This document shows positions 12,901 through 39,414 of a stretch of 40,104 nt of DNA, piece after piece. The stretch covers positions 1 through 40,104 of IMG/VR virus record IMGVR_UViG_3300046777_001244; one strand, written 5' to 3'. This stretch comes from a virus (taxonomy: Duplodnaviria; Caudoviricetes). The notes under the pieces were generated by a model that searched no databases, was not told the DNA's origin, and saw only the letters and a list, made by a program, of their open reading frames with translations. The position numbers were made by a program, and so were the translations under genes. How positions within the stretch are numbered: position 1 is the stretch's first letter; the number at the start of each line of letters is the position of its first letter.

Positions 12901-15900
12901 GAGAAGAGCGAGAAAGAAGAGAAGGCTCGTGCCGATGAGTCTGTAAAAGACTTTGAGCTTGGCAAGAGCGCAGAAGAACAGATGACCGGCATGGGCGATC
13001 TGTTTAAGGGCGAGAAAAAATCTCTTGGCGGAGAGCGTGCGCAAGTACAAGCATTTGAGCAGACCCTACGCAATCTCCTGAACAAGTTCGGCCTGAAGGA
13101 TGTGGGCCTGAAGATTCTGGACGGGATGACTGATTCCGGCTCCTATGCCGCGCAGATCATCAGAATTGCCGCTGATGCCGCGAACCCCGTGCGGACTTTG
13201 AGGCACGAGGCTATCCACGCCCTGCGAGAACTTGGCTTCTTCACTGATGCACAGTGGAAATCCCTGTCCAAGATGGCAAAGGACAAGTGGATTGACCAGT
13301 ACCTCAAGCAAAGGAACGTAGACGGCAAACCTCTGAAAGCAGGGGAAGAATCCCGGTATGACGCATACATGCGTGAGTACAACGGGGACATGGAGAAGAT
13401 CACCGAAGAAGCGGTGAGCGATGCCTTTGCTGACTTCGATGCCACGAAGCCGCCCGCTGGATTGATCCAGGCTTTGCTCAAGCGGATGAAGGACTTGTTC
13501 CAGTCCATCAAATCTGCGCTTACGAAGGTTGAATCACCTGAGCAAATCTTTGGCAAGGTTGAGAAGGGTGAACTGAAGGAAAGCGCACGCGAGGCTAAGG
13601 GCGAAGCAAAGAGCCTGCGTGACAGGGCTACCGCTAACTTCCGCCGCTGGTTTGGTGACAGCAAAGTAGTGGATAAGAAGGGTGAGCCGCTGGTTGTGTA
13701 TCACGGGACGGACGAAGAGTTCTACGCTTTTGATCCATCCAAGCAAAATGTTCGCAATGCCCGCATGGGTATGGGGTTCTACTTCACTGCAAACAAAGAT
13801 GCTGCGGCCATGTCAGGTGACAGGGTGATGCCTGTGTATCTGTCGCTACAGAATCCTTACGTCATATCACTTGATGGCGATCCAAAATTTGGCTCAGAAG
13901 GATATGAAACTCGTGAGAAGTTGAAGCGCGATCCTGTTGCCGCGACGAAAGAACTTCGTGCCGCTGGTTATGACGGCATTCAAGATGGGAATACCTACGT
14001 TGCCTTTGAGCCCACCCAGATCAAATCTGCCATCGGAAACAACGGAGACTACAGCCTTACAAACGCTGACATCCGTAAGAGCATAGGTGGGCGCAACCCC
14101 GGAGAGCAGGCTATCTCCATCGTGAACCAGATGAAGATGGGCATCCCGCCCGCCAAGCCTACCTTTGGTCAGCAAACCATTGCCATCCTGAAAGGGGAAC
14201 AGCAACTCCCAACCCTTGACCTGAAGACGGCTAAGGAAGTTGCAATGAAGTTCTCAGATACGTTTGAGAAGAACATCTTCTCTGCTGATGCCGCGTTTGA
14301 AAACGCAGTGCGGCGCGGCGTAAGAAAGGCGGTGAAGGACAACGACAAAGTTATCGGTCTTGTGCTCCAAGCGGGCCAGTCTCAAGCGGTGAACATTGAC
14401 AACGTGGTAAGCAGAGCCATTATCGAAGGGGCCTCTGAGTACAACGAAGACATGCAGAAGTGGCAATCTGTTCAGAAGGAAGAAAACCTCAAGGCTCAAA
14501 CCGCGAAGCTGGAAGAGATTTCCAAGAAGTACAACTTGCCGCTTGATGAAGTCAAGAGCGTTGCCCATGCGTATCTTGTGACCAAGCGCCTGCCGGGCAT
14601 CTTGGAGCGCAACGCAAAATTTACGGCGGAGATTGACGCTGAGCAGAAAACCGCAAAGCCTGACCGCAAGAAGATTGAGGAGTTGAAAGCACTGCTTGTG
14701 ATGGTGACGCCTGAGCAACAGGCTCAGATGGAGCCAGGACAATCGCTGGTAAAGCTGATCCCGGAACTTGAGCAAGTATCTGACATCTGGCAGGGCATGC
14801 GTAAGAACACCATCAACACGATGGTTGAGGGTGGTTTGTGGTCAAAGGAATACGCAGAGTCATTGCTGGACAACGTTGACTACGTGCCTTACTACCGCGT
14901 AGAACAGCTTGAAGAAGATGCGGGTCCGCTGGAGTTCATTCGTGGTCTTCAGGTCAAAGCCAAAGATCACAGGCTCAAGGGTTCTGATTCTCCGGTGAAC
15001 GATGTTTTTGACAATCAGGTTCGCTGGATGCAGTACGCTATGAGCCGAACCATGCGGGCGCACAAGGCGCGGCAGATGATCGATGTTGCAAAGGACATCG
15101 ACATCGGAGGCCGCAAGATGGCGGTGCAAGTCAAGGAACAAGAGCGCGGCATGAACATCGTGCGCATCTACCGTGACGGCAAGCAAGAATTGTGGGATGT
15201 TGCTGATCCCAACTTCATTGATGCTTTTGCTGCTATCCAGAACGTCTCCATCCCCATGTTCAAGTGGGCGGCAAAGGCTGCGGAGATTCTCAGGAACATG
15301 GTGGTTCTGTACCCGCTGTTCTCTGTGGCCCAGGTTCCGCAAGACTCAATGGCTGCGGTGTTTACATCCGGCCTGAAGCCTCAGCACGCCTTGAAGATTC
15401 CATACCTCGCGGTGCAGGAGTTCATCAAGACGATTGCCAAGACCAGTGCTACCCACAACGAACTGAAGAAGTTTGGCGTAGTGGGGGCGCGGGACTTCTC
15501 TGCTGATGTCATGCGCAAAGACGCTGAGATCGAAGCGGGCTTGAAGCAGCCCAAGGGAGTGTGGGGCAAGACCAAGGAAATCCTTGAGCACGTTGCTATG
15601 GCAGGGGATAACGCTGTCCGTCAGGCCACGTACATTGCCTCTAAGCAACAGGGTTTGTCTGAGAAGGAAGCTCTTGAGAAGGCGTTTGAAATCTTCAACG
15701 TCCGTCGCCGTGGAACCAGCAAGGCGCTAAATTTGGCGGGGCAGACGATCCCGTTCTTCTATGCGTACCTCGCGGCTCAGCGGGTGGCGTATAGAACGAT
15801 CACTGGCGTAGGAACTTCACCGACTCAACGAGAAGCCGCGCTCAAAACTTTGGCGGCTACGTCGGCATCGGTAATGGTTCTGTCCATGATCTACGCCATG

Positions 15901-16812
15901 ATGGTGGGCGATGACGAGGACTACGCCGAGACGCCTGCTGCGGTGCGGGACAGAACGCTGATGATCCCCGGCTCAGGTGGCGTGCGGATTCCACTGCGGC
16001 CTGACTTCTTCTTGTTCCCAAAAATTATCGCTGAGCACACCTACCAGTTGATTACCGACAAGGGGTATGAGGATGGCGCTAAATTCAGGACATCGATGTT
16101 TGATGCCCTAGTGAACGCTGTTAGCAGCCCGACTCCTATCCCTCAAATTGTGAAGCCCGCACTTGGGGTAGCCATCAACTACGACTTCTTCCAAGGCAAA
16201 CCTCTTATCGGTACGTTTGAGAAGAACAAGGATCTGGAGCGTCAGTTCCGGGATACCACTTCTGAACTGGCAAAACTGTTCGGGCAAACAGGTATGGTGT
16301 CTCCGATTGCTGTGGATCACCTGATCCGTGGCATGCTGGGTTCGTTTGGCGGATTGATGCTGTACGGGACAAATATGTTCCTGCACTCTGATCCTGACGT
16401 TCCAAGACCGGAGATGTCTGCTAATGAGATGCTGGCCGCGTTGCCGGGAACCGCTGGCTTCCTGAAGCGCCCTCAAGAATCTGCACTGAAGAACGACTTC
16501 TTCGTGCTTCGTGACGCCGTAGAGAAAGCGGCCAACACCTTCAACGACATCAAGACCCGTAGCCCAGAGGGTATTGAAGCGTTCTTGGAAGACGAGAAGA
16601 ACGCCATCCGTCTAGGCATGGCAAAGGGTGTTGACAAAATTAACAGGCACTTGTCAGACATCCGTAGACGGATGACCATCATTACGAACATGCCTGAGAG
16701 CCAGATGCCGGCCGATGAGAAGGCAGAGAACATCCGGGAACTGAGGGAACTGGAGCGTGAAATTTTGCGCTCAGTGAACGTCAAGGAACTGCGGGAGATG
16801 GCGAAGATTTAA
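9907..16812 (+). CDS. Large polyvalent internal virion protein (HExxH metallopeptidase-like, ART-PolyVal-like, LPD38-like C-terminus)
   Basis: 2301 aa; RHEAIHA at ~13201; FRRWFGDSKVV..PLVVYHGT..GFYFT..GYDGI..FEPTQIKSAIGNNG at ~13630-14050; C-terminal SPIAVDHLIRG region. Confidence 0.8.
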   Translation: MAGRDFSAELFGPSAGRDFSAELFGAKPPEKQSAFRQIADVPLGIAKGAVQGVRMIADAFGAGSDTSKTIKSAETYLADLMSAQAKNDQQEISRIMKDAEDKGVLDQVKAGIKAFTVAPVDTLSSALGTAAPVIAGALGAKLLGAGALATTGVSALTGAGMGAGSIKGSIYEATKQTLKEAGASEQDAESRAKLAQEYGGKNLDQILLGTVLGGAAAVGPLEKGGAAILARRILGKTEETVAGQAAKGAVRRRLEAGALEAVPEAAQAGQEQVAQNIALQREGFDVPTFRGAFSSATLEGLAGAGLGAAVGGGKPAAAPEVPPAAPPVAPPAAPEAGLEQLTPQQKQELERQRAGRERPQTTEELFAGITTAPATTPQDVARIRDEHETAVIEGLLEQDAEMKRASDLAAQQREIQKQQTQLESEAEFISGGISDVDRRVREGRIFARVQDLIDRNIPFASTAINDINQKFGVINEAPLTEEERARIENIMGMVSTFTNFVNLPVLAPKPMDPFAENQQMEALIRERTERGQAQPVRTAPAAPSPSVQEAPVSQGVGEGPAVRPPSGVEPSVAEDSELVTPAPVVEAAAPTIPELRQRVEQADELSDEWQTRIDNLKNAVAQDIKQTLDANEMPVFVSKSGLTSVITPSAQQGGMFQLTRYNQTGAVGDSQYRTIEDAITDNNLQDANRLDKAKAEEHMAKLVEAEAAYQSSKKPAPKAKAPTTKPAKAAALRKQPNTIMGSTMLADVSNRLGGLDLSLLSEFSTKFITKRKDKYGRPLTMWRNPMVPGVGTLFRKGGESDYVLIATMLEEAGYLEPGSVERDYKEAGERAKDMIKAALNREEVLTLEQQESQRQADEEANRQAWLEQQEELKAERDNAAREAGLTPYEGDLLTDEDIDVFAPAKPQTDEQYAAAMRGLGFDETEIADAVQKKQERERAQKTASGRPAEARAVPETGEGTEGLERYTAEEVTRKQEEAEKAAAEEKKAKAAEQARLQKEKSEKEEKARADESVKDFELGKSAEEQMTGMGDLFKGEKKSLGGERAQVQAFEQTLRNLLNKFGLKDVGLKILDGMTDSGSYAAQIIRIAADAANPVRTLRHEAIHALRELGFFTDAQWKSLSKMAKDKWIDQYLKQRNVDGKPLKAGEESRYDAYMREYNGDMEKITEEAVSDAFADFDATKPPAGLIQALLKRMKDLFQSIKSALTKVESPEQIFGKVEKGELKESAREAKGEAKSLRDRATANFRRWFGDSKVVDKKGEPLVVYHGTDEEFYAFDPSKQNVRNARMGMGFYFTANKDAAAMSGDRVMPVYLSLQNPYVISLDGDPKFGSEGYETREKLKRDPVAATKELRAAGYDGIQDGNTYVAFEPTQIKSAIGNNGDYSLTNADIRKSIGGRNPGEQAISIVNQMKMGIPPAKPTFGQQTIAILKGEQQLPTLDLKTAKEVAMKFSDTFEKNIFSADAAFENAVRRGVRKAVKDNDKVIGLVLQAGQSQAVNIDNVVSRAIIEGASEYNEDMQKWQSVQKEENLKAQTAKLEEISKKYNLPLDEVKSVAHAYLVTKRLPGILERNAKFTAEIDAEQKTAKPDRKKIEELKALLVMVTPEQQAQMEPGQSLVKLIPELEQVSDIWQGMRKNTINTMVEGGLWSKEYAESLLDNVDYVPYYRVEQLEEDAGPLEFIRGLQVKAKDHRLKGSDSPVNDVFDNQVRWMQYAMSRTMRAHKARQMIDVAKDIDIGGRKMAVQVKEQERGMNIVRIYRDGKQELWDVADPNFIDAFAAIQNVSIPMFKWAAKAAEILRNMVVLYPLFSVAQVPQDSMAAVFTSGLKPQHALKIPYLAVQEFIKTIAKTSATHNELKKFGVVGARDFSADVMRKDAEIEAGLKQPKGVWGKTKEILEHVAMAGDNAVRQATYIASKQQGLSEKEALEKAFEIFNVRRRGTSKALNLAGQTIPFFYAYLAAQRVAYRTITGVGTSPTQREAALKTLAATSASVMVLSMIYAMMVGDDEDYAETPAAVRDRTLMIPGSGGVRIPLRPDFFLFPKIIAEHTYQLITDKGYEDGAKFRTSMFDALVNAVSSPTPIPQIVKPALGVAINYDFFQGKPLIGTFEKNKDLERQFRDTTSELAKLFGQTGMVSPIAVDHLIRGMLGSFGGLMLYGTNMFLHSDPDVPRPEMSANEMLAALPGTAGFLKRPQESALKNDFFVLRDAVEKAANTFNDIKTRSPEGIEAFLEDEKNAIRLGMAKGVDKINRHLSDIRRRMTIITNMPESQMPADEKAENIRELRELEREILRSVNVKELREMAKI
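9913..9980 (+). repeat. Two-copy N-terminal repeat GRDFSAELFG (39-bp period)
   Basis: GGGCGTGACTTyAGyGCTGAACTGTTTGG at 9913 and 9952. Confidence 0.9.
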
Positions 16813-20362: not shown

Positions 20363-20553
20363 ACTGCCCCCTTATCCATCATGTGCATAGCCTTACGCAC
20401 AGCGTCTGTCAGGTTGAGCCATTCGTTCCAGCCTACTGCCTGGAAAAACTCCACCTTGACCGCTGAGTCGTCAACGGCCTGCACCGTTGCAACGAGGCGG
20501 TCGTTATCCTTGTCAAAGATATCGATGCGGATTGGGCAAACGGATAGTTTCAT
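20359..20553 (-). CDS. Hypothetical protein
   Basis: Coupled ORF, ATGA overlaps. Confidence 0.65.
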   Translation of the reverse strand: MKLSVCPIRIDIFDKDNDRLVATVQAVDDSAVKVEFFQAVGWNEWLNLTDAVRKAMHMMDKGAV

Positions 20554-20891
20554 TTCATTTCCTTTCCTATAGCTGCTGCTGCGCGAACGATGGCGCGGCG
20601 GGTTTTCTCGGCAATGTCCGAGCCCATGCCGTCATCACAGTGTTCAGTAACCCAGTCGTCCACGGAGCGGCACCAAACGCTGACCATGTGCAGCTTCTCA
20701 AAGCCGATGTCCAAACGCAACTTCATCGCCAACTCAAAGGCATCGCCGGAATTGATGATGGGGTTCCATTGAAAGCCGCGATGGTCAACGCATACACAGT
20801 CGGTGCCTCGCTCAACAATCATGTCGTGATAGATGCGAACCTTAATCCCCGCCGCCTTTGCGGCGTCCTCCAGCAGTTCACGGTCAGTCAT
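20550..20891 (-). CDS. TDRELLE/WNP..GDA/RRAIVRAAA family protein (phage ABA-sandwich-like), paralogue 1
   Basis: Motifs shared with 21928, 30790, 31074. Confidence 0.7.
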   Translation of the reverse strand: MTDRELLEDAAKAAGIKVRIYHDMIVERGTDCVCVDHRGFQWNPIINSGDAFELAMKLRLDIGFEKLHMVSVWCRSVDDWVTEHCDDGMGSDIAEKTRRAIVRAAAAIGKEMK

Positions 20892-21577: not shown

Positions 21578-21931
21578 TCAGAAGGGCGGGTCGTTGTCAA
21601 AGTCGTCAGACTTCTTCGGCTTGGCTTCTTCCCGCTTGCCCTGCAGCGCAATGTCGTTCACCCGCACGTTCATGGACTTCTTGGCGTTTCCATCCTTGTC
21701 GGTCCACTCACGCTCGGAGACAGAACCAGACACCGCTACCGCTTGGCCTTTGGTGAGGTACTGAGCAAGAGACTCAGCACGCTTGCCGAAGAGTTGGCAG
21801 TTCCACCAGATCGTGGGCTTGTCCCGCCCAGCAGAATCTGCCACGGAGAAGTTAACAACTGCATCCCCGTTTGGGAGATGCCGCAGTTCGGCGTCACGGC
21901 CCAGAGAGCCCGCCAAAAAAATTGAGTTCAT
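21578..21931 (-). CDS. ssb: Single-stranded DNA-binding protein
   Basis: GSLGRDAELR, FGKRAE, LTKGQ, acidic tail ending DPPF. Confidence 0.93.
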   Translation of the reverse strand: MNSIFLAGSLGRDAELRHLPNGDAVVNFSVADSAGRDKPTIWWNCQLFGKRAESLAQYLTKGQAVAVSGSVSEREWTDKDGNAKKSMNVRVNDIALQGKREEAKPKKSDDFDNDPPF

Positions 21932-22242
21932 TTCATTTCCTTTCCGATTGCTGCTGCTGCACGAACGATGGCGCGGCGGGTGGCGGCAAGAGGGTCTTCA
22001 CCGTTACGCTCGATGAACACTTCCTTTTGCGTAAATTCTTGCCCGCAAATAGCCACATCGTCATATGAACAATTTACGGTTAGCCGCAAATTCACAGCCA
22101 GACGCAGCGCATCGCCGTCGTCGTTGATTGGGTTCCAGTATTCGCGGCCAGCATCGTTGATCAATCTGATGTAGTTCTGTCCTGGCCTGTAAGCCGCATA
22201 TGCGGCCTCAAGCAGTTCTCTATCAGTCGGACTCGTGTTCAT
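21928..22242 (-). CDS. TDRELLE family protein, paralogue 2
   Basis: WNPINDDGDALRLAV..ATRRAIVRAAAAIGKEMK. Confidence 0.7.
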   Translation of the reverse strand: MNTSPTDRELLEAAYAAYRPGQNYIRLINDAGREYWNPINDDGDALRLAVNLRLTVNCSYDDVAICGQEFTQKEVFIERNGEDPLAATRRAIVRAAAAIGKEMK

Positions 22243-23012
22243 TGGAAAGAATCCTTCTTGGTTTTGAAAGCGGACATGAGATCCTTGTGGCACTCGGGAT
22301 CAATGGACTTCACCTTGTCAAACAAAGCCCGGTTGACCTGAAAGACCTGCATGACGTCAGCCTGAGACGTAGCCTGCTCCAGCGCAACAACAGCGGCCTC
22401 AGAGACGATGTTGATGAAGTCAGTAGGCGTGGCGTCAGGCTTAGTTTTAACGGTGATCTGGAACCGACCGGCTTCGCCTTCCATCTTGGCCGGGGGCTTT
22501 GAGGGAGGAGTGGGCTTCTTGGCAGATGACTCTTCGGCCTCTTGCTGCTTTCGTTCCGTCCATTCTTTAGCGGCCTCGGCAACATACTTGCTGTCATCCC
22601 AGCGGCCACTGAAGATGTCGCCAGCAAAGCCCAAGTAACTAGCGCACTTCACCAGCGCGTCAGTAACGGACTTCTTGGGCGCATCTTCATCCAGCATGAA
22701 CTTCCCAGCGCCAGTGGTGTAGCTGGATTTGGTTTGACCGATCTGCTCCAACTCACCGCGCTGGCCGTCCAGCACGTACCAAAAGCGCACAGATGCAATG
22801 TGCAACGTATCGGTATCGCTGAAACGCTCAAAGCGTTCGTTGAGGATGTTGAAACCCCAGCCAATACCGCAGGGGCCAAACTCATCTGTCAGGCGCTCAA
22901 CAATCCAGTACGGCTTAGGGCTGTTGCCGTTGTACTGCTTGCCTGTGATGGGCTTGACTGCTTTGGGGTCGGTGGTGAACACGCGCCCCCATAGGGCTTT
23001 GTTCTTGATCAT
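22239..23012 (-). CDS. Rad52/22-like (Sak-type) single-strand annealing protein
   Basis: FGPCGIGWG and KKSVTDALVKCASYLGFAGDIF motifs; beside SSB and exonuclease. Confidence 0.75.
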   Translation of the reverse strand: MIKNKALWGRVFTTDPKAVKPITGKQYNGNSPKPYWIVERLTDEFGPCGIGWGFNILNERFERFSDTDTLHIASVRFWYVLDGQRGELEQIGQTKSSYTTGAGKFMLDEDAPKKSVTDALVKCASYLGFAGDIFSGRWDDSKYVAEAAKEWTERKQQEAEESSAKKPTPPSKPPAKMEGEAGRFQITVKTKPDATPTDFINIVSEAAVVALEQATSQADVMQVFQVNRALFDKVKSIDPECHKDLMSAFKTKKDSFQ

Positions 23013-26075: not shown

Positions 26076-26120
26076 ATTGGACCTGAACCTATCAGGTATG
26101 TCAACTAGGGGTTTACCCTA
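26076..26120 (-). promoter_or_regulatory. Leftward sigma70-like promoter with operator-like palindromes
   Basis: - strand TTGACA-17-TCCAAT; ACCTGA-N5-TCAGGT in spacer; TAGGG-N5-CCCTA abutting the -35. Confidence 0.6.
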
Positions 26121-30563: not shown

Positions 30564-30793
30564 GTCTTGCTCCTCTCGGGCCACCACGCGGGGCGGTCGG
30601 TCCATTCGACAGCAGCTTGAATATCTGCTGGCACTTTCACTACCGATTGATCCGCTGCTTCTTCGGCAGTCATCCCAATATGCGCTGGGAAACCCCACCG
30701 CTTCCCGTTCCACCACCGCAAAATATCGGCGTTTCGGCGGCTACTCGCAGGCCACCAGCCAATGCTGGGTGGCGGTCCCTTGTGCCATTTCAT
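30560..30793 (-). CDS. Trp-rich phage protein (WHKGPPPSIGWWPAS family)
   Basis: Recurring phage motif; coupled. Confidence 0.7.
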   Translation of the reverse strand: MKWHKGPPPSIGWWPASSRRNADILRWWNGKRWGFPAHIGMTAEEAADQSVVKVPADIQAAVEWTDRPAWWPERSKT

Positions 30794-31077
30794 TTCATCT
30801 CCTTTCCAATCTCAGCCGCAGCCCTGACGATGGCGCGGCGGGTGGCCTCTAAATCGTCTTCGCTTTTGTCTAGAAATAGCCGTCCCGAGACATCCCGGAC
30901 AGCCCCGATCATCACGGTTAGGTCTAGCTTCACCGCCAACCGCAGCGCATCGCCGTCGTCGTTGAGGGGGTTCCATCGTGCCCATTGGCCTGCGCCTTCC
31001 ATCCAAACATGAGTGCCGTCATGTAAAAGCAGTCCCGCCGCCTTAGCGGCGGCCTCAAGCAGTTCGCGGTCAGTCAT
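30790..31077 (-). CDS. TDRELLE family protein, paralogue 3
   Basis: WNPLNDDGDALRLAVKL..ATRRAIVRAAAEIGKEMK. Confidence 0.75.
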   Translation of the reverse strand: MTDRELLEAAAKAAGLLLHDGTHVWMEGAGQWARWNPLNDDGDALRLAVKLDLTVMIGAVRDVSGRLFLDKSEDDLEATRRAIVRAAAEIGKEMK

Positions 31078-31418
31078 TCCATGCTCCTCCCAATCTCAGC
31101 CGCGGCCCTGACGATGGCGCGGCGAGTGGCGGCGTAGGGGTCGCCCTTCTCGCTGGCGCAGACAGAACGCTCACATTTCGCGGATGCTGCGTGCGCCGAT
31201 GTGTTGTACACCTTCAGTTCCATTTCCAACTTCACCGCCAGCCGCATCGCCTGCGCGTCGTCACCCAGCGGGTTCCAGACAGTTTCCGAATAGGGCTGGC
31301 CTTGCACGTAATGCGTCATGGCCCAAACCGGACGGCGCTGCATGGTTCCGTCATCGCTCTCGTGAATCTCAACCCCAGCCGCCTTCGCAGCAAGTTCCAG
31401 CAGTTCACGATCTGTCAT
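31074..31418 (-). CDS. TDRELLE family protein, paralogue 4
   Basis: WNPLGDDAQAMRLAVKL..ATRRAIVRAAAEIG. Confidence 0.75.
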   Translation of the reverse strand: MTDRELLELAAKAAGVEIHESDDGTMQRRPVWAMTHYVQGQPYSETVWNPLGDDAQAMRLAVKLEMELKVYNTSAHAASAKCERSVCASEKGDPYAATRRAIVRAAAEIGRSME

Positions 31419-31612
31419 ACCAACACCCCCACAACGAACGCAATCACACCGACAACGGCGACGACTGCCACGCCACACAACAAGACAGCCTTCAACTCCT
31501 CGCGGTAGAACTCGCGCCCGTAGAAGTCAGGCTCTTGACCGATCTCTGTTGCCGCCTCAGCGGCTTCGGGAAAGCGGCCTTGCTGGTCACAGCCTTTGGG
31601 AAGTTTCTTCAT
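31415..31612 (-). CDS. Small membrane protein (CDQQGR.PEAAEAATEIG family)
   Basis: Start MKKLPK; C-terminal TM. Confidence 0.65.
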   Translation of the reverse strand: MKKLPKGCDQQGRFPEAAEAATEIGQEPDFYGREFYREELKAVLLCGVAVVAVVGVIAFVVGVLV

Positions 31613-32112: not shown

Positions 32113-32190
32113 CCCCGATGCTACACTGATCCTACCTGATGACAACTAGGGGTTTATACCTAGTGCATTCGGGCAACAGGAGAGTAGCAT
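32113..32190. promoter_or_regulatory. Divergent promoter pair around a CTAGG..CCTAG palindrome
   Basis: - strand TTGTCA-16-TAGCAT; + strand GTGCAT-16-TAGCAT; CAACTAGGGGTTTA identical to 26102-26115. Confidence 0.6.
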
Positions 32191-32220
32191 GAACGTCCTT
32201 GTTATGCAGGAGTACACAAG

Positions 32221-32418
32221 ATGGACAAGCAAGAGTTCAAGCGCCGGTGGGAGTCTGGCGATGACGGCGGCGGCATCACGATGGAGGACATTGCCGCGTG
32301 CTACGTTGAGTGGGGGTTGGGATCAACACCGCGCATACGGTCCCCACGTTCAGTGATTCGGGCTGTGGTTAAAGCGGCGGATACAAACGACCAAGACGAC
32401 TGGGAAGACGAGCTTTGA
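32221..32418 (+). CDS. Hypothetical protein
   Basis: AGGAG RBS; acidic tail. Confidence 0.7.
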   Translation: MDKQEFKRRWESGDDGGGITMEDIAACYVEWGLGSTPRIRSPRSVIRAVVKAADTNDQDDWEDEL

Positions 32419-32438
32419 CAAGACGACTGGGAAGACGA
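32392..32438 (+). repeat. 20-bp direct repeat straddling a stop codon
   Basis: CAAGACGACTGGGAAGACGA at 32392 and 32419. Confidence 0.9.
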
Positions 32439-32451
32439 CCAAGGAGCAAGC

Positions 32452-32775
32452 ATGAGCCTAGACGTAATGCTTTACGACGCCGATGGGACCGAGGTTTACT
32501 CGGCCAACATCACGCACAACCTCAACAAGATGGCCGACGAGGCGGGCATCTATGCCTGTCTGTGGCGCCCTGAAGAGAACGGCATCACGCACGCGCGGCA
32601 GATCATTGAGCCGCTGGCCGCCGGGCTGGTGCTGCTAGTGACCGAAAAGGCACGGTTTGAGCAGTTCAACGCCCCGAACGGCTGGGGGCTGTGGAAGCAC
32701 TTTGTTCCGTGGTGCGCCGCCTACCTGCAGGCGTGCCGGGACAACCCCGACGCGCTGGTGCGGGTGAGCCGCTGA
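32452..32775 (+). CDS. Conserved phage protein (SLDV..NITHNL..PNGWG family)
   Basis: AGGAG RBS; recognisable phage motif; GC-rich. Confidence 0.75.
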   Translation: MSLDVMLYDADGTEVYSANITHNLNKMADEAGIYACLWRPEENGITHARQIIEPLAAGLVLLVTEKARFEQFNAPNGWGLWKHFVPWCAAYLQACRDNPDALVRVSR

Positions 32776-32785
32776 ATTGGGTGCT

Positions 32786-32813
32786 GCATAACGTGAAATA
32801 GGCCGCATGCGGC
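32786..32813. repeat. TAACGTGAAATAGGCCGC motif, copy 1 (putative cassette landing site)
   Basis: 18 bp identical to 38967-38984; variant at 33003. Confidence 0.8.
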
Positions 32814-32825
32814 AGAGGAGAAGAA

Positions 32826-33005
32826 ATGGCATATACACCAAAGGACTGGTCTACGCCGGACTGGAAAAAAAAGAGCCGCGTGCATGAGTGGAAAAACTAC
32901 ATCAGCAAAGAGTTGGAAGCGATGTGGAGCACATTCAATGATGCGCAGAAGCAAGCGCTTGCCAGAAATGCTGACGACTTAGCGTCACGCGAACACTGGG
33001 ATTAA
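32826..33005 (+). CDS. 59-aa hypothetical protein absent from the ORF track (MAYTPKDW..HEWKNYIS..EHWD)
   Basis: GAGGAG RBS; open frame to TAA, which begins the repeat motif. Confidence 0.75.
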   Translation: MAYTPKDWSTPDWKKKSRVHEWKNYISKELEAMWSTFNDAQKQALARNADDLASREHWD

Positions 33006-33037
33006 CGTGAACAGGCCGCACGCCTTCGGCCTAACTT
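33000..33037. repeat. TAACGTGAA-CAGGCCGC..CGGCCTAACTT motif, copy 2
   Basis: Matches 38967-39001 in both arms. Confidence 0.75.
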
Positions 33038-33046
33038 TTGAACACC

Positions 33047-33847
33047 ATGAAAAAACTCAACATCAACAACATCATCATCGACAAGGGCACCCAGTCCCGT
33101 GCCGCGATCAGCGAGGATACGGTATCGGACTACGCCGAGGCGATGTCAGCGGGCGACGAGTTCCCGCCTGTGGTCGCTTTCCATGATGGTGTGGACTACT
33201 ACCTTGCCGATGGATTCCATAGGTTGCATGCCGTCAAGCGCCTGGGCAAGACCTCCATCCAAGCCGATGTGCGCACAGGAACTTTGAGGGATGCCATCCT
33301 GTACAGCCTGGGCGCGAACCGGGACCACGGTCTGCGCCGGAGCAATGCAGACAAGCGCAAGTGCGTTCAGACTTTGCTGGAAGACTTCGAGTGGGGCGAC
33401 CTCAGTGTGAACGAAATGGCCCGCATCTGTGGCGTTTCACCTCAGTTGGTGATGGCCGTGAAGCAGGAAAAGGACGCTGGCGAGAAGGTGAGCAGCGTTA
33501 ATTTTAACGCTCCGAAGAAAGCCAAGCCGGCAAAATTGGCGAACGTGGTGGAGGCTCCGCTTGAACCTCCGGGCGAGTTTGTCATTGACGAGAAGGACGA
33601 GGCCGTAGCAGAACTGATGGCCGAGAACCAGCGCCTGAGCGACCGGCTTGCGGTGGAAGCGATGGAAGCAAGTGAAGAGGAGAAGCAGGCGGCAGGCGAA
33701 ACCATCGCAGAACTGCGGGAGCAGATCCGCATCTTGGAGATTGAGAACCAAAGCCTGAAGATCAGCCGGGACACTTTCCAACGGGAGAACGCGGAGTTGA
33801 AGAAAACGGTGGCATCCCTGCAGCGAAAGCTGAAGAAGGAGGAGTGA
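33047..33847 (+). CDS. ParB N-terminal-domain protein with HTH and coiled coil
   Basis: FPPV, LADGFHR, HGLRR, SVNEMARICGVS. Confidence 0.8.
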   Translation: MKKLNINNIIIDKGTQSRAAISEDTVSDYAEAMSAGDEFPPVVAFHDGVDYYLADGFHRLHAVKRLGKTSIQADVRTGTLRDAILYSLGANRDHGLRRSNADKRKCVQTLLEDFEWGDLSVNEMARICGVSPQLVMAVKQEKDAGEKVSSVNFNAPKKAKPAKLANVVEAPLEPPGEFVIDEKDEAVAELMAENQRLSDRLAVEAMEASEEEKQAAGETIAELREQIRILEIENQSLKISRDTFQRENAELKKTVASLQRKLKKEE

Positions 33848-34224
33848 TGTCTAAGCGGAAGATCAGCGGCAAGTGGTTGCGCATGGCAGAGATGTACAAA
33901 CGATTTGCCAGTGATTACAAGTGCGCTGACTTCAGCGACGATGCTGCAATGGCAATGTACTTACATGAGTCCACCGGAGCGCCGCTGCCAGATCCAAAGA
34001 CGAACGGCTACGCGCTGGGAAAGAAATGGATGGACGTAACGGTTGCAGCATGGAAAGAGGAGATCCCTCAGATGGGGCTGCTTGTTTCTGAACTGCAAGC
34101 TGACGGCTATCCAGACTGGTTTCTTGAGCAAATTGGCGTGCTGCATCTTGAGCCAACAAGGCAGGCGTGCTCGTGGTGGATTGGAGAAGATTGGGCGCGC
34201 AAGCTGAAGAAGGAGGAAGCGTGA
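33844..34224 (+). CDS. Hypothetical protein
   Basis: Coupled; ends KLKKEE like upstream gene. Confidence 0.65.
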   Translation: MMSKRKISGKWLRMAEMYKRFASDYKCADFSDDAAMAMYLHESTGAPLPDPKTNGYALGKKWMDVTVAAWKEEIPQMGLLVSELQADGYPDWFLEQIGVLHLEPTRQACSWWIGEDWARKLKKEEA

Positions 34225-34478
34225 AGTTCAACATCAACGACATGGTGCGCGTGAAGTTAACTGACGTTGGCAGGAAAGCACTGGAGGATGAGCATAAGAA
34301 GTTCTGGTCCAGTGTTAAGCGCCCAGAGGAGCCATACACACCACCAAAGGAAGATGCTGATGGGTGGAGTGAATGGCAGTTGTGGTGTTTGATGAACAGA
34401 TTGGGCAGCTATGTGGAGATGGGAACTAAGGTGCCTTTTGAGACAACCATTGAGATTGTGAAGAAGGAAGAATCATGA
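34221..34478 (+). CDS. Conserved phage protein (FNIND.V.VKLT..G..QLW family)
   Basis: GTG start coupled to TGA, GGAGG RBS. Confidence 0.7.
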   Translation: MKFNINDMVRVKLTDVGRKALEDEHKKFWSSVKRPEEPYTPPKEDADGWSEWQLWCLMNRLGSYVEMGTKVPFETTIEIVKKEES

Positions 34479-34484
34479 AGGACA

Positions 34485-34504
34485 ACTTGAGCGACGGGTT
34501 AGGC
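34485..34504 (-). other. Truncated attC (R''-spacer-L'' only)
   Basis: - strand GCCTAAC-CCGTC-GCTCAAGT; no downstream L'/R' found. Confidence 0.7.
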
Positions 34505-34529
34505 CCGTTGCAACCGAAGCGAGAAAAGC

Positions 34530-34745
34530 ATGCACACCAGAAAAGCGTTCTTGATTTACCCGCCCAACTACAAGCCGGGCGACGGCTACAAGGTGCGCCG
34601 CTCAAAGCGGCAGGCATGGAAGGAGGCCGTTCGCATGGGCGAAGGCGCATCGGTTGACGTTCAAAAGCAGACGCACCCGGCCCCGCGCACGCGCTGGAAC
34701 TCAAGCGTCAGCCGCCCGCTTTGGGTGCTGGAGAAACGGGCCTAA
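34530..34745 (+). CDS. Cassette 1 ORF, hypothetical basic protein
   Basis: Stop TAA lies inside the GCCTAAC core site. Confidence 0.7.
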   Translation: MHTRKAFLIYPPNYKPGDGYKVRRSKRQAWKEAVRMGEGASVDVQKQTHPAPRTRWNSSVSRPLWVLEKRA

Positions 34746-34825
34746 CGCACCAGCTCAGCGGCGGCCCGCTGGGTGATTCAATAACCAAGCTGCTGGCGGC
34801 CGTCCGCTGCAGCGCACTGTTCGGC
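34740..34825 (-). other. attC site (86 bp)
   Basis: - strand GCCGAAC-AGTGC-GCT[G]CAGCGG[A]CGG...CCGCCGCTGAGC-TGGTGC-GTTAGGC; 5/6-bp spacers and two extrahelical bases. Confidence 0.9.
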
Positions 34826-34852
34826 CTCTGGTGCCGAAGCGAAGGGAAGGCG

Positions 34853-35077
34853 ATGGACATGCTGACACTGCGGCTCGAAAGCCGCGAGGGCGACCGCATG
34901 CTGTGGGTGCCCGAAGAGGCGCGCGGCGACCCCGAGCACTTCCTCTGCCAGCAGGGGACGATCACGCGATTCAACGGCGAGCGCGTGATGATGAAGTTCG
35001 ACGAAGAGGTCGAAGGCGCCGGCTGGGACGCAGCGCGCGAGGTGGCCATCGACCCGCGCAACCTGCGCGTGCTGTGA
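34853..35077 (+). CDS. Cassette 2 ORF, small SH3/KOW-like beta protein
   Basis: ATG after GGAAGG; TGA 1 bp before core site; fold is a guess. Confidence 0.7.
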   Translation: MDMLTLRLESREGDRMLWVPEEARGDPEHFLCQQGTITRFNGERVMMKFDEEVEGAGWDAAREVAIDPRNLRVL

Positions 35078-35078
35078 G

Positions 35079-35132
35079 GCCTAACGTTCGAGCTAAGCCG
35101 CCGCAGGTCGGCGCTTGAGCGAGTAGTTCGGC
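35079..35132 (-). other. attC site (54 bp)
   Basis: - strand GCCGAAC-TACTC-GCT[C]AAGC..GCTTAGC-TCGAAC-GTTAGGC. Confidence 0.9.
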
Positions 35133-35157
35133 TGGGTCCGAAGCGAAAGGAAAGACG

Positions 35158-35406
35158 ATGACCATGAAACTGAAGGGCGCGCGCGCCCGCAACTTCATAG
35201 CTGCCGCGCTGGTGGACCAGTACGGCGCGAGAGCCCGCGACAAGTGCTGCGGCGAAATGCTGGCGGCCGTAGAGCGCGAGCTTGCCTTCCGCGACCGAGC
35301 CAGCGTGCTGGACAACCCGGCCGGCATGACGATGAGCGAATGGCGCGCAGCGAACCCGGAGCCCACGCACGGCTGCGGGCACATGCAAGGCCGCGGCGCA
35401 GCTTGA
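35158..35406 (+). CDS. Cassette 3 ORF, hypothetical protein
   Basis: AGGA RBS; TGA 1 bp before GCCGAAC. Confidence 0.7.
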   Translation: MTMKLKGARARNFIAAALVDQYGARARDKCCGEMLAAVERELAFRDRASVLDNPAGMTMSEWRAANPEPTHGCGHMQGRGAA

Positions 35407-35407
35407 A

Positions 35408-35425
35408 GCCGAACGTGTGTTAGGC
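35408..35425 (-). other. Simple recombination-site-like palindrome (attI/attG-like) at array head
   Basis: GCCGAAC-GTGT-GTTAGGC, two core-like heptamers with 4-bp spacer. Confidence 0.6.
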
Positions 35426-35446
35426 GACATCAACTGGTAAACCACG

Positions 35447-35936
35447 CCCACGCCAGCGGGCTAGTGCTGGCATCAGGAGAAATCAAATGATTTATGAGAT
35501 GGGCAGACAAATGCCGACGCCAGCGCAAAGGCGCATACTTCGAGAGATTGCTGATGACTCATTCACAATGTCTCTGCCGATAGATTTTGGCAACGTGCCA
35601 TGTGGGGAGAAGTGGGAGCCTGACATGTCAACAAGTACGGCGTTTCGCATGCGGAATGTTCCGCCTCATACAGACCGGCGTAGCCCTGGGGATTATGTTG
35701 GAATCAGCAGACCTCGCAACTATGTGGCTGTATTCTGGCTGGTGGACATGCCAAATGGTGAAGGCTTGTATTTGCAGGTTGGCGGCGTGGCACGATCCAT
35801 GCGGCAAGGCGACTTTGTAGTTTTCAAAGACAGCGTGTTGCACAGTGTTATTTCAGATCGCGTATGGCGCGGATGCGCGTATCAGGCAAGACCCAAAAGA
35901 ACATAAAACACCCCCACGCCAGCGGGCTAGTGCTGG
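35447..35936 (+). repeat. 24-bp perfect direct repeats flanking the oxygenase gene
   Basis: CCCACGCCAGCGGGCTAGTGCTGG at 35447-35470 and 35913-35936; contains a hairpin. Confidence 0.92.
35487..35906 (+). CDS. 2OG-Fe(II) oxygenase / cupin-like protein
   Basis: PPHTD (HxD), GDFVVF...LHSV pattern. Confidence 0.6.
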   Translation: MIYEMGRQMPTPAQRRILREIADDSFTMSLPIDFGNVPCGEKWEPDMSTSTAFRMRNVPPHTDRRSPGDYVGISRPRNYVAVFWLVDMPNGEGLYLQVGGVARSMRQGDFVVFKDSVLHSVISDRVWRGCAYQARPKRT

Positions 35937-35951
35937 CAGCGGAGAACTTAA

Positions 35952-37415
35952 TTGAAACTAGAACTGAGAGAGGCGCAAGTCCGCGCCATTGAGCTACTGC
36001 GAGAAGGCTTTGCACAAGGCCACCGCTCTCAAATACTTGCCGCGCCTGTAGGTTTTGGGAAGACTGAAGTAGCTATTGCCTTGCTTGAAGCGGCAAAAAA
36101 AAAGGGCACAAGATCATCAATGATCCTTGACCGCATAGTTCTTTGCGATCAAACGTCTCAGCGCCTTGATAAGTACGGTATTGACCACGGCGTACTCCAG
36201 TCAGGACATTGGCGCTACAGGCCCAGCGAATACATACAGGTGTGCTCCGCGCAAACCTTGGAAGCAAGGGGCTCTGTACCCGATACCAAGCTGCTTATCA
36301 TCGATGAATGCCATTGCTCCCGCAAAGCCACCAACGACCTCATAAAGAATAACCCGCACATTAAAGTTGTCGGGTTATCTGCAACCCCGCTAACCAAGGG
36401 GCTTGGAAAGATTTATTCCAATGTGATTAACCCAATCACAACGAAAGAACTGGTTGAGAAAAAGCTACTTACCCCGCTAAAAGTATTTATCTCCAAGGAG
36501 ATTGATATGAAAGGGGCAAAGAAAGTAGCGGGAGAATGGTCAGATGCAGAGGCTTCTTCAAGGGCGATGAAAATCGTTGGTGATGTAGTTGCCGAATGGG
36601 TAAAGAAGACTCACGAAATATACGGCAAGCCTGTCAAAACAATCGTGTTCTGTGCTGGCGTTGAGCACGGTGCAGAGTTAGCTAGTAGGTTCCGTGAGCA
36701 AGGATACAACTTCGTAAGTATTTCGTACAGAGATGACGATCAGTTTAAGAAGGACGTCATTGAAGACTTCTCAAAACCTGATACAGAGATACACGGTATC
36801 TGCGCCGTAGACATACTTACCAAAGGTTTCTCGGTTGACGATGTGCATATCGGAATATCTGCCAGACCATTCTCAAAGTCTTTGTCATCGCATATTCAGC
36901 AAATGGGCAGGGTTATGCGGACGCATAGCACCAAACAATTTGCAACGTGGCTTGATTTTTCGGGAAACTATTTAAGGTTCAGAGAAGACTGGGAGAAGAT
37001 ATACGAAAGCGGTATTGATGAGCTTGATGACAAGGGGGAGAAGGCTAAGAAAGAACCCGACGAGAAGGAGAAGAAAGAAGCAAAGTGCCCCGCCTGCGGA
37101 GCCCTGTGGCCGCGTGGTTCAGATACTTGCTTGAACTGCGGGCATGAGAGGGAGCGTAAGAGTGCTGTCGTATCTGTACCCGGCCAGATGGAAGAACTGG
37201 GCTCCATGTCCCGAGACGACAAACAGGCATGGTGGAGCATGGGTCAATACATGGTGCAGTCTGGATCGTGGTCAGACAAGCGTGCTCTTGCGATTTACCG
37301 CGAGAAATTTGGTGTGTGGCCCCGTGGTCTGCATGCCACCCCGTTACCGCCGACACGGGCATTTGAGAGCTTCGCAATCAAGAGCATCAGGAAGTACCTG
37401 AAGGGCAAGCGATGA
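35952..37415 (+). CDS. Superfamily 2 DEAD/DEAH-box helicase with Zn finger
   Basis: APVGFGKT, DECH, LSATP, QQMGRVMR, CPAC..CLNC. Confidence 0.92.
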   Translation: MKLELREAQVRAIELLREGFAQGHRSQILAAPVGFGKTEVAIALLEAAKKKGTRSSMILDRIVLCDQTSQRLDKYGIDHGVLQSGHWRYRPSEYIQVCSAQTLEARGSVPDTKLLIIDECHCSRKATNDLIKNNPHIKVVGLSATPLTKGLGKIYSNVINPITTKELVEKKLLTPLKVFISKEIDMKGAKKVAGEWSDAEASSRAMKIVGDVVAEWVKKTHEIYGKPVKTIVFCAGVEHGAELASRFREQGYNFVSISYRDDDQFKKDVIEDFSKPDTEIHGICAVDILTKGFSVDDVHIGISARPFSKSLSSHIQQMGRVMRTHSTKQFATWLDFSGNYLRFREDWEKIYESGIDELDDKGEKAKKEPDEKEKKEAKCPACGALWPRGSDTCLNCGHERERKSAVVSVPGQMEELGSMSRDDKQAWWSMGQYMVQSGSWSDKRALAIYREKFGVWPRGLHATPLPPTRAFESFAIKSIRKYLKGKR

Positions 37416-38230
37416 AGTTTCTAGACTTCTGCCGTGCCCACGGCATCCTTATTGACCATCTTCCTCCTGTCGGCCTGTGGAGGAGGTATCCCACCGAGGA
37501 CAAGCCGCGCCACAAGAACGGAGCAGTCAAGTGGATGCTTGACCACGGCTTCGTCCAAAACCACGCCACGGAGGTAACAGTTTCCGTCTGGAGACCTGAC
37601 GAGCCCGTAAAAATTAACAGGCGAGACCTAGCCGAGCAGGCCCGCAGAGCAGAGCAGGATACTCTGCGCAGGCAAGCTGAGGCGGCCAAGAAAGCAGCTT
37701 GGATACTTCACCAATGTCAGTACGCATCTCATCCATATCTCAAGGCCAAGGGCTTTCCCGATGAGGTTGGAAATGTTTGGGTTAGGGAAGGTGAGCATCT
37801 GCTGGTGATCCCCATGAGAATTGGGCAGAGGCTGGTGGGTGTCCAACTGATCGACGCTGCGGGCGGCAAGAAATTCTTGAGCGGTCAGGTCACAGGCGGC
37901 GCGGAGTACGTGATAGATAACCGAGGCCCGCACTTTTTGGCAGAAGGTTTTGCCACGGCCTTGAGCCTGCGGATGATCCTCAAAAATTGGAAGCGCAGGT
38001 ACACCATCCATGTGTGCTTCAGCGCAGGGAACATGCTCAAGATCGCCCAGACCTTGCCAGGGGGCTACGTCATAGCAGATCACGATGCCTCAGGGACCGG
38101 GGAGCGGGTAGCCCGTGAGATAGGCTGGCCGTTCTGGATGTCTGACAAGATAGGCGACTGCAACGACCATCACCTGCGGGAAGGGCTTTTCAGGACGGGG
38201 CAGTCAGTGCTGCGGGCTCTCAAAATTTAG
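37412..38230 (+). CDS. DNA primase, TOPRIM domain
   Basis: HPYL..KG, VQLID..GGKKFL, AEGFATA, ADHD, DCND. Confidence 0.85.
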   Translation: MKFLDFCRAHGILIDHLPPVGLWRRYPTEDKPRHKNGAVKWMLDHGFVQNHATEVTVSVWRPDEPVKINRRDLAEQARRAEQDTLRRQAEAAKKAAWILHQCQYASHPYLKAKGFPDEVGNVWVREGEHLLVIPMRIGQRLVGVQLIDAAGGKKFLSGQVTGGAEYVIDNRGPHFLAEGFATALSLRMILKNWKRRYTIHVCFSAGNMLKIAQTLPGGYVIADHDASGTGERVAREIGWPFWMSDKIGDCNDHHLREGLFRTGQSVLRALKI

Positions 38231-38246
38231 GGGTACCAAGCATCCT

Positions 38247-38293
38247 CAACTGGTGTAAGCCCTATGTTGCTATCAGGTAGGATGGTGTAAGAT
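38247..38293 (+). promoter_or_regulatory. Putative promoter sharing ATCAGGTAGGAT spacer motif
   Basis: TTGCTA..TGTAAGAT with ATCAGGTAGGAT identical to - strand 32129-32140; CAACT..CCCTA upstream. Confidence 0.55.
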
Positions 38294-38305
38294 GGATGTA
38301 GACAG

Positions 38306-38601
38306 ACAGGAGAAATGATGAAGACGACTGTTTACACGGTGCATGCCTACCGATGGGGCGACCATGAGTGCAACAGCTACATCGTGGGCGTGTATTCCGA
38401 GGCTCACGCAGCACTCAAGGCTGCCGAAGTTGAAGAGGACTACAGAGGCGGGAAATACTCGTGCGAAGTACTGGAATGGACTTTAGACAGCGGCATGGAA
38501 GGCAACCACGATACCGTGCACGCGCCGAAGACCGTGAGGCCACTTGTCAAGTTTTCTCAAAAGATACGGAACGTGAAATAAGCACACAGGAGAAATGATG
38601 A
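38306..38601 (+). repeat. 16-bp direct repeats (RBS plus start) flanking a gene
   Basis: ACAGGAGAAATGATGA at 38306 and 38586. Confidence 0.85.
38315..38581 (+). CDS. Conserved phage protein (AYRWG..SY.VG..RGGKY family)
   Basis: Strong RBS; recognisable motif. Confidence 0.7.
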   Translation: MMKTTVYTVHAYRWGDHECNSYIVGVYSEAHAALKAAEVEEDYRGGKYSCEVLEWTLDSGMEGNHDTVHAPKTVRPLVKFSQKIRNVK

Positions 38602-38969
38602 CCAAGGATAACTGCCCCGATGGGTCCGCGTTGAGCGAGGGGTTAGGCGCCGACGCTTGGGCGATGGCGCGCTTGGCCCGAATGACGCTATGGCTGGCCT
38701 ACTGCTGGAACGACCACAACTTCCAGAAGCGGCCCGACCAGTACGCACGGGAGTGCGCCAAGGAACTCGGCATCGCGGGCTTTGAGGACGCGAACGACTG
38801 GCTGCAAGGCGTGAAGGTCGAGAACCCGCGCCGCACGCTGCCGGCACTGCCTGCCGCGAAGGTGCTGGCAAGCGGCACGATCAGCGGCAAGCGCGTGGAA
38901 CTGAAGGGCTGGCATGAGGACGACCTGAAAGCGTGGGCCGAGAAACACGGCTTCGCCTTCGGGGCCTAA
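38595..38969 (+). CDS. Cassette-derived hypothetical protein (AYCWNDHNF motif)
   Basis: Reads through attC remnant (SALSEGLG); stop inside GCCTAAC. Confidence 0.7.
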   Translation: MMTKDNCPDGSALSEGLGADAWAMARLARMTLWLAYCWNDHNFQKRPDQYARECAKELGIAGFEDANDWLQGVKVENPRRTLPALPAAKVLASGTISGKRVELKGWHEDDLKAWAEKHGFAFGA

Positions 38970-38981
38970 CGTGAAATAGGC
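38629..38981 (-). mobile_element. Solo integron-type cassette with degraded attC
   Basis: GTTAGGCGCCGA (38642) vs TCGGGGCCTAAC (38959) 11/12 complementary; - strand GCCTAAC-CCCTC-GCT[C]AACGCGG[A]CCC. Confidence 0.75.
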
Positions 38982-38997
38982 CGCTTCGTGCGGCCTA
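38977..38997. other. Perfect hairpin between convergent genes; part of landing-site motif copy 3
   Basis: TAGGCCGC-TTCGT-GCGGCCTA. Confidence 0.7.
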
Positions 38998-39001
38998 ACT
39001 T

Positions 39002-39193
39002 CTAGTGCTTCCCCGCTGACAGCGTGGGCATGTCCACCTTGAAAACCTCGGGGTGCTGCATTTCCAAGTACGACAGATGCCCCAAAATTTGCAGGCCGAG
39101 GGACAGAACTTGCTCGTCCTGGCCCACGGCATCAGATCGGATGGAGATCCGACCGTCCTCTTGGATGAGGGTGATGTTTACTACGGTGGTCAA
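39002..39193 (-). CDS. Hypothetical protein
   Basis: TTG start coupled to upstream TGA. Confidence 0.55.
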   Translation of the reverse strand: MTTVVNITLIQEDGRISIRSDAVGQDEQVLSLGLQILGHLSYLEMQHPEVFKVDMPTLSAGKH

Positions 39194-39354
39194 TTGCAGG
39201 TCACATCGCACCGACGAAGAGCCCCACTTCCATAGCAGCACTCAGAGCAGTAAACGGTTCGCCCATTCATCGTCATTGTGAAGTACCGACAGGTGTAGGC
39301 CAGGGCAGCAGTGGCGAAAAGGGTAGCGGCGAGGAAAGCGACAGTTTTCTTCAC
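39190..39354 (-). CDS. Small secreted Cys-rich protein
   Basis: GTG start after CAGGAG; signal peptide KKTVAFL..ALA; six Cys in ~35-aa mature part. Confidence 0.7.
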   Translation of the reverse strand: MKKTVAFLAATLFATAALAYTCRYFTMTMNGRTVYCSECCYGSGALRRCDVTCN

Positions 39355-39414
39355 GGGATTCTCCTGTTTGCCGAAATGGCGGTGAATGGTGCCATGCCTT
39401 AGCGGATGGCGCAA

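Follow-up and report, generated by a model that had tools for sequence, protein, structure and literature searches.

A short, integrase-less attC array with reversed genes and attI-like docking sites beside the helicase gene of a freshwater phage

The phage contig analysed here carries a short array of three reversed, attC-bounded accessory genes with an attI-like end, and a host integron integrase (IntI) acting in trans has likely inserted and rearranged its cassettes; we give this reading a probability of roughly 0.7. The array is of the published, integrase-less kind, in a form that is reversed and docked at attI-like sites, and natural sequences give good evidence of exchange. The contig, IMG/VR record IMGVR_UViG_3300046777_001244, is linear and 40,104 nt long, and is referred to in its entirety as the window; it is about 63% complete, with about 37% of the genome unseen. 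The metagenome runs that contained the window were labelled freshwater or lake.

Annotation with PHROG and Pfam assigned virion and ejection-type proteins, a single-stranded DNA-binding protein (SSB), exonucleases, a ParB-like protein, a helicase and a primase to the window, and no capsid, portal or terminase gene was annotated in it. An ejected polyvalent protein is probably encoded at 9907-16812 (2,301 aa, ART-PolyVal and LPD38 domains), and a leftward accessory region holds four paralogues of phrog_5086 (20550-20891, 21928-22293, 30790-31077 and 31074-31478). The array lies between the ParB-like gene and the helicase, where every gene is on the plus strand, and from this layout we assumed that the array, ParB and helicase genes form a single transcript. 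The landmarks were as follows:

33038..33847, plus strand: ParB-like gene (phrog_1033, E 6.5e-20), left landmark
35952-37415, plus strand: helicase, right landmark
37412-38230, plus strand: primase, right landmark (helicase/primase pair: phrog_16, phrog_2249)

The interval between the ParB-like gene and the helicase measured 2,108 bp, and was empty (at most 69 bp) in 46 of 66 relatives. A BLAST search of positions 33000-39400 against GenBank phages gave a single match, to the helicase, at 64%. Promoter and terminator scans stayed at chance level (4 promoters, 3.9 expected), and only 0.00–0.06 of the window's words were present in RNA runs. The replication region is bracketed by a 32-nt inverted pair (78%; 32129-32160 and 38252-38283), each copy of which is upstream of a variable gene block and appears promoter-like or operator-like; a similar word occurs near 26090.

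An earlier note on this DNA, made from the sequence alone, had described two complete attC sites of 86 and 54 bp with R and L boxes, 5/6-bp spacers and an extrahelical base, plus a half site. All of these were present:

34485-34504, minus strand: half attC (R'', 5-nt spacer and L''); partial model match, 10 bits
34740-34825, minus strand: attC1, complete, 86 bp; covariance model 45.4 bits on the minus strand, 8.1 on the plus strand
35079-35132, minus strand: attC2, complete, 54 bp; covariance model 47.4 bits on the minus strand, 7.8 on the plus strand

In a layout scan, attC1 and attC2 each consisted of R'', a 5-nt spacer, an 8-nt L'', a 7-nt L', a 6-nt spacer and R'. L pairing was complete (7/7), and the fourth position of L'' was an extra C. 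This canonical layout was found for both sites on the minus strand only; the earlier note, whose array features otherwise stood, had missed both this orientation and the attI-like right end of the array (35408-35430). The covariance-model check that it had proposed placed both sites far above the next-best match in the window, 12.3 bits. The model was custom-built from 31 bacterial attC sites whose loci had been fetched with a pattern taken from the window's own attC arms, so that the score is partly circular, whereas the difference between strands is not. In 20 approximate dinucleotide shuffles, both R consensus boxes with at least 6/7 L pairing occurred at a mean of 0 sites and 7/7 L pairing alone at a mean of 1.1 sites. 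An Rfam scan of the window at gathering scores returned no match, and the attC arms matched those of Burkholderiales arrays.

The plus (bottom) strand of both sites folded with the R and L boxes paired. Bottom-strand pairing probabilities for attC1 were 0.90–0.96 for R and 0.78–0.85 for L, and for attC2 about 0.8 for R with a weaker outer L (0.31–0.46). The minimum-energy fold of attC1 contained the full hairpin when 4 flanking bases were included, and not without flanks.

The distance between attC1 and attC2 is 253 bp, inside the 3 kb within which two or more attC sites define a CALIN (PMC9892861), and no intI was found nearby or elsewhere in the 40 kb contig; nor does the window hold an intI adjoining attI, as a complete integron would. 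The earlier note held that integrase-less arrays are described mainly on chromosomes and plasmids, and here it was overtaken by published work: Qi, Rajabal, Ghaly, Tetu and Gillings (2023) identified 17 CALINs among 10,705 phage genomes, mentioned divergent attC sites in one phage, and reported that 5 of 6 tested phage attC sites recombined with IntI1 (PMC9892861). Like the present array, the CALINs of virulent phages such as Tetrasphaera phage TJE1 have 2–3 attC sites, single small genes and no intI, and a host IntI was proposed there too (PMC9892861). The TJE1 genes run in the canonical direction, whereas those of the window are reversed. In the parts of that paper drawn on here, attI is named only in temperate-phage cases and the array content of related phages is not compared (PMC9892861). 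Across the literature searched, chiefly open-access, we found no description of reversed-polarity phage arrays or of host-type attI without integrase in phages.

The attC sites separate three single-gene units, with the following parts:

34514..34522, plus strand: leader motif CCGAAGCGA, between R'' and the ribosome-binding site; again at 34834 and 35138
34530..34745, plus strand: gene A, 71 aa; stop codon overlaps the R' box of attC1
34746..35084, no strand assigned: cassette B unit (attC1 body and gene B), 339 bp; bounded by AA/C, the slash marking the cut
34853..35077, plus strand: gene B, 74 aa; exact protein on 4 contigs, cluster of 3
35085..35413, no strand assigned: cassette C unit (attC2 body and gene C), 329 bp; ends 8/8 complementary
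35158..35406, plus strand: gene C, 82 aa; 6 full-length relatives, 78–94%

Two further claims of the earlier note, that the units are richer in GC than their flanks and that the ends of each are complementary, were borne out. The GC content of the three units was 61.5, 67.2 and 67.4%, compared with 54.5% upstream, 50.1% downstream and 55.0% in the window, and their ends were complementary at 12/12, 9/10 and 8/8 positions. Across 17 phage-type cassettes, end positions 9–12 were complementary in 44 of 68 cases (shuffled mean 24.8, maximum 39 in 20,000). Gene A has 14 relatives besides itself, 51–89% identical, one of them in a large phage with no attC nearby, and a further 5 proteins share the C-terminal tail of gene C only. 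Because genes A and C are conserved, their plus-strand frames can be taken as real. Since the half attC at 34485-34504 lacks the L'/R' half, cassette A is predicted to be fixed. The leader motif, CCG(A/G)AGCG, recurred in many phage cassettes (the window and loci L003, L105 and L107) and stood beside only 3 of 236 bacterial attC sites.

Pfam returned nothing for genes A–C and one sub-cutoff match for gene D (described below), while PHROGs and PADLOC were empty for genes A–D except for one match to gene B at E 0.049. The gene B protein matched nothing in Pfam, PDB or phage GenBank records, and the leads from an Atlas search with gene A were all below 0.9. A single-sequence fold of gene B (pLDDT 44) was discarded. 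When 17 phage cassette proteins were compared with the cassette genes of 242 bacterial loci, no match was found except attC-arm peptides and one phage-like contig. The last ~25 residues of the gene C protein (35340-35406) recur behind unrelated N-terminal sequences in other proteins (P0007-P0011; L359:2501-2575), and in runs X5 and X7 the DNA of this tail also lies ahead of other attC sites. The tail may serve as a portable C-terminal tag or mark a hot spot of recombination. A 60-aa frame (34475-34657) opens at the stop of the upstream gene, spans the half attC and then overlaps gene A in a different frame; it could couple translation.

The canonical top strand of the attC sites is the minus strand, so each attC stands upstream of its gene, with predicted AA/C cut points at 34745/6, 35084/5 and 35413/4. 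The phage-type cassettes tested showed this reversal too: by a ribosome-binding-site rule, of 17 tested (16 bounded), 15 were opposite, 1 was unclear and none had the same orientation. Under the same rule, 144 bacterial cassettes gave 64 same, 20 opposite and 60 unclear, and by a longest-ORF rule 136 gave 105, 9 and 22, respectively. Two of the 20 opposite cassettes from bacterial assemblies sit in a phage-like contig of a Roseateles bin. On phage cassettes the longest-ORF call was noisy, with at least two mis-bounded, and the ribosome-binding-site rule was used instead. The window genes point towards the docking site, whereas the cassette genes of a complete integron point away from attI, with the promoter at the attI end.

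The preference of IntI for the bottom strand orients cassettes to the integron promoter (PMC5371416). Given this preference and the reversed polarity, a phage cassette in a host integron would be antisense to the promoter, unless it carried a promoter of its own. The proposal in the earlier note that the phage is a vector or source of cassettes is weakened by this expected antisense landing and by the 17 phage proteins unmatched in the 242 bacterial loci, and a role for the phage in spreading host traits in expressed form has a weak case.

Besides the site that ends the array, the window holds three docking-type sites:

32786..32810, minus strand: truncated docking site (32792 site) closing a two-gene unit; rank 2 of 1,315
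33000..33035, minus strand: third docking site (33006 site), a 1-bp-shorter variant before the ParB-like gene; poor profile fit, rank 88 of 1,315
35408..35430, minus strand: terminal docking site (35414 site), an attI-like simple site or collapsed attC, crossover 35413/35414; rank 1 of 1,315
38964..38999, minus strand: second docking site (38970 site), attI-like, with an R-box direct repeat 29 bp upstream of the crossover; rank 18 of 1,315

The ranks refer to all 1,315 GTT positions of the window, scored with a host attI profile that is small and loose (16 positions, 20 sites). From 76 intI hits, 35 with attC in reach (overlapping loci included), 23 host attI sites were called beside intI, of which 3 were dropped as attC ends. 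Position 38572 ranked third, and the 38970 site rose to rank 4 when the profile was cut to 10 positions. The motif CTA-N6-GTT occurred in 8 of 20 host attI sites and at 10 of the 1,315 window positions. An R-box repeat at -27 to -35 was found in 7 of 20 host sites; it is present 29 bp upstream at the 33006 site also, and absent at the 35414 site, whose core fits the profile.

On one Burkholderiaceae chromosome (L358:1168-1540), a normal cassette is headed by a homologue of the 38970 family, agreeing by eye at 22 of 30 positions; attI and one attC-bounded cassette lie there among ordinary chromosomal genes, with no intI in the 3 kb examined. A second such chromosome (L365) has a 35414-like junction within an array, immediately ahead of a cassette. 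Both loci were retrieved by pattern searches in Burkholderiaceae, in which the exact docking sequences gave 2 and 1 hits in 401 and 301 genomes, compared with 3 and 3 for reversed-pattern controls; as these counts are at control level, it is the context of the two loci that carries the weight. Two of three metagenome matches to the 35414 motif (L355 and L356) were rejected as the ends of other, long attC sites. In L354, a 35414-type site is followed by a cassette-type leader, and from this and the missing upstream repeat the 35414 site may be a collapsed attC.

The docking sites are joined to varying partners, with 11, 8 and 3 different R-box end partners at the three main cores. The 33006 site adjoins differing gene ends in the window, L001, L003, L010, L020, L023 and L036, and despite these many partners it ranks only 88th in the host profile. 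L003, L354 and runs X5, X6 and X7 show different cassette ends attached at the 35414 site. Truncated docking copies occur at 32786-32810 and in L001, L003 and L020, in tandem in L001 and L020, and among relatives such copies after genes without attC were commoner than intact attC. They resemble the Delta-attI cassettes of class 1 and 2 integrons, in which a truncated attI closes the gene in place of attC (PMC12901181) and which excise and insert with IntI1 (PMC12901181); assignment to this type depends on the site being a true attI. Unlike the window copies, Delta-attI cassettes come from clinical bacterial integrons and have normal polarity, and in the main text of that paper phages are not mentioned (PMC12901181). 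The two-gene unit at 32201-32792, whose ends are complementary over 9 bp and whose left site has collapsed, is probably a decayed cassette.

Exchange was visible in relatives, whose array content the earlier note had suggested comparing; this content differed, and the junctions fell at the R box. The relative L003, which has about 91% identity across the helicase and primase, shares the 35414 site but has it joined at the R box to other cassettes, and carries about six other genes between the ends where the window has gene D only; runs X5, X6 and X7 supplied further partners at this site. In another phage group (L093, L101 and L104), three different attC-plus-gene units lay within near-identical flanks at a 38970-type site. 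A 438-nt contig from lake run X4 matched cassette B over 34743-35086 with two differences, and both neighbours differed from those in the window, with a cut at AA/C on each side. To its left the copy has a 13-mer of window 32780-32792, in a flank with only 9 unmatched letters, and to its right another attC-like start. Run X1, a possible source of the window, showed no excised circle or cassette-skipping junction among the joints listed, in contigs that drop rare forms. Intact attC sites were present in 2 of 52 related contigs (54 loci) and 1 of 5 whole records, and intact arrays are thus a minority state in related phages.

Some exchanges are at the other attC end and are not explained by bottom-strand IntI recombination. 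One case is a fourth gene:

38595..38969, plus strand: gene D, 124 aa; start in a half attC (38629-38648); cassette ends 11/12 complementary

Gene D starts within an attC loop (38595-38648). At the protein level its body is near-identical in 8 proteins with 6 different heads (P0035-P0041 among them), each head ending in an attC-arm peptide. Similarly, the left flank and half site at 34459-34503 precede a different body in three runs (X5, X6 and X7). In bottom-strand exchange a gene and its upstream attC stay together, and head swaps therefore need top-strand events, which are ~1,000-fold rarer (PMC5371416), or short-homology annealing.

A six-frame search of the window, from a genome 63% complete, found no tyrosine recombinase (PF00589), in agreement with the earlier note. 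PF00589 was also absent from five relatives, two of them complete, and no resolvase-type domain (PF00239) was found in 5 records. Both integrase-free complete relatives also lack intact attC, so they cannot show that array-bearing phages lack an integrase. IntI was encoded in 120 of 301 Burkholderiaceae genomes, and many integrons place the expression of their integrase under SOS control (PMC8946536). The resemblance of the sites, together with a phage-like contig in a Roseateles bin (L122:3400-6020) whose six attC sites run opposite to phage-type genes, suggests a Burkholderiaceae-type host. By eye, the ORFs of this contig include ParB-like and adenine-methylase-like genes; it is a possible prophage and host lead. 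Compared with Burkholderiaceae chromosomal integrons, the window matches in attC arms and attI core, and differs in having no intI, no cassette promoter found at the attI-like site, genes that point towards that site, several docking sites scattered in one operon, and cassette genes that were not common to both in the sample tested. With attC-bounded cassettes, varying arrays and no recombinase found, we infer that host IntI, likely borrowed in trans, would be the likeliest route.

On infection of an IntI-encoding host of Burkholderiaceae type, a cassette circle would recombine into the phage site through its folded bottom strand, here the coding strand of the gene. The attC and ribosome-binding leader would end up upstream of the gene, which would be transcribed from the phage operon promoter, and the array would gain new genes at its downstream end. 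Half sites and truncated docking sites would be what is left after later deletions that remove attC halves and fix useful genes. Gene bodies behind an unchanged head are likely exchanged by a second process at the R'' arm, either top-strand recombination or short-homology annealing.

Such annealing might have a larger part, with the attC sites derived from integron cassettes and present exchange mostly driven by short homology through phage exonuclease and annealing, leaving IntI a minor role. Head swaps that fall within ~12 nt at the R'' arm would suit this explanation, as would insert left junctions at shared ribosome-binding sequences in relatives, the exonucleases and SSB that the phage encodes, and the many inserts in the same intervals without att features, e.g., HNH-type and methylase-like genes (by eye). 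We nevertheless consider it unlikely, given that whole attC-plus-gene units are replaced between near-identical flanks at junctions sharing only the R box, that cassette B was cut at AA/C on both sides, and that self-complementary cassette ends persist, which annealing alone would not maintain. The integrase could instead be phage-encoded, in the missing third of the genome or in a co-infecting phage, with no dependence on a host enzyme. This would fit the incompleteness of the genome and a cassette pool that looks phage-specific, but no tyrosine or serine recombinase was found in the closest complete relative, a 62.8 kb genome with a 95% identical helicase in which docking remnants are present, and the docking sites resemble host attI; we regard a phage enzyme as decidedly unlikely.

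Higher GC in the units and attC arms matching Burkholderiales arrays would also be expected if a piece of a bacterial integron array had been captured once, by illegitimate recombination along a route already proposed (PMC9892861), and were now static cargo. The genes, however, run opposite to those of bacterial cassettes, their relatives are of phage type, and they vary cassette by cassette from one relative to another; the finding of cassette B among other neighbours largely refutes a static array, which we judge highly improbable. Returning to recombination by host IntI, a tentative and on balance doubtful extension is that phages keep a mirror-image pool: the host attI would have been copied backwards into early operons, host cassettes would be silent in the phage and phage cassettes silent in the host, and starts within attC loops would let gene bodies gain heads. 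Integron cassettes are reported to encode anti-phage defence (10.1101/2024.07.02.601686, 10.1101/2024.07.02.601719). If this extension were true, freshwater phages would run their pool on the host integrase, and host cassettes, many of them anti-phage, would be antisense in the phage.

Site-specific gene capture at defined docking sites, by an enzyme seemingly not carried by the phage, would provide a mechanism for part of phage genome mosaicism. The natural variants span the whole path from an empty interval through an intact array to trimmed, fixed genes. Given the reversed polarity, the cassette pools of phage and host are predicted to have the enzyme in common and not expression, a point relevant to the suggestion of integron cargo being spread by phages.

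Two further repeats were observed. A 23-bp hairpin repeat (35449-35471 and 35915-35937) is conserved in many relatives, placed ahead of the ribosome-binding site of either the helicase or inserted genes; in L003, X4, X6 and X7 it is joined to a duplicated ParB gene end, marking short-homology insertion. In L003 (10318-10940), an HD-domain-like gene (by eye) that is absent from the window lies between two copies of a 12-bp repeat, which is located at the second GCCTAAC of the 38970 site.
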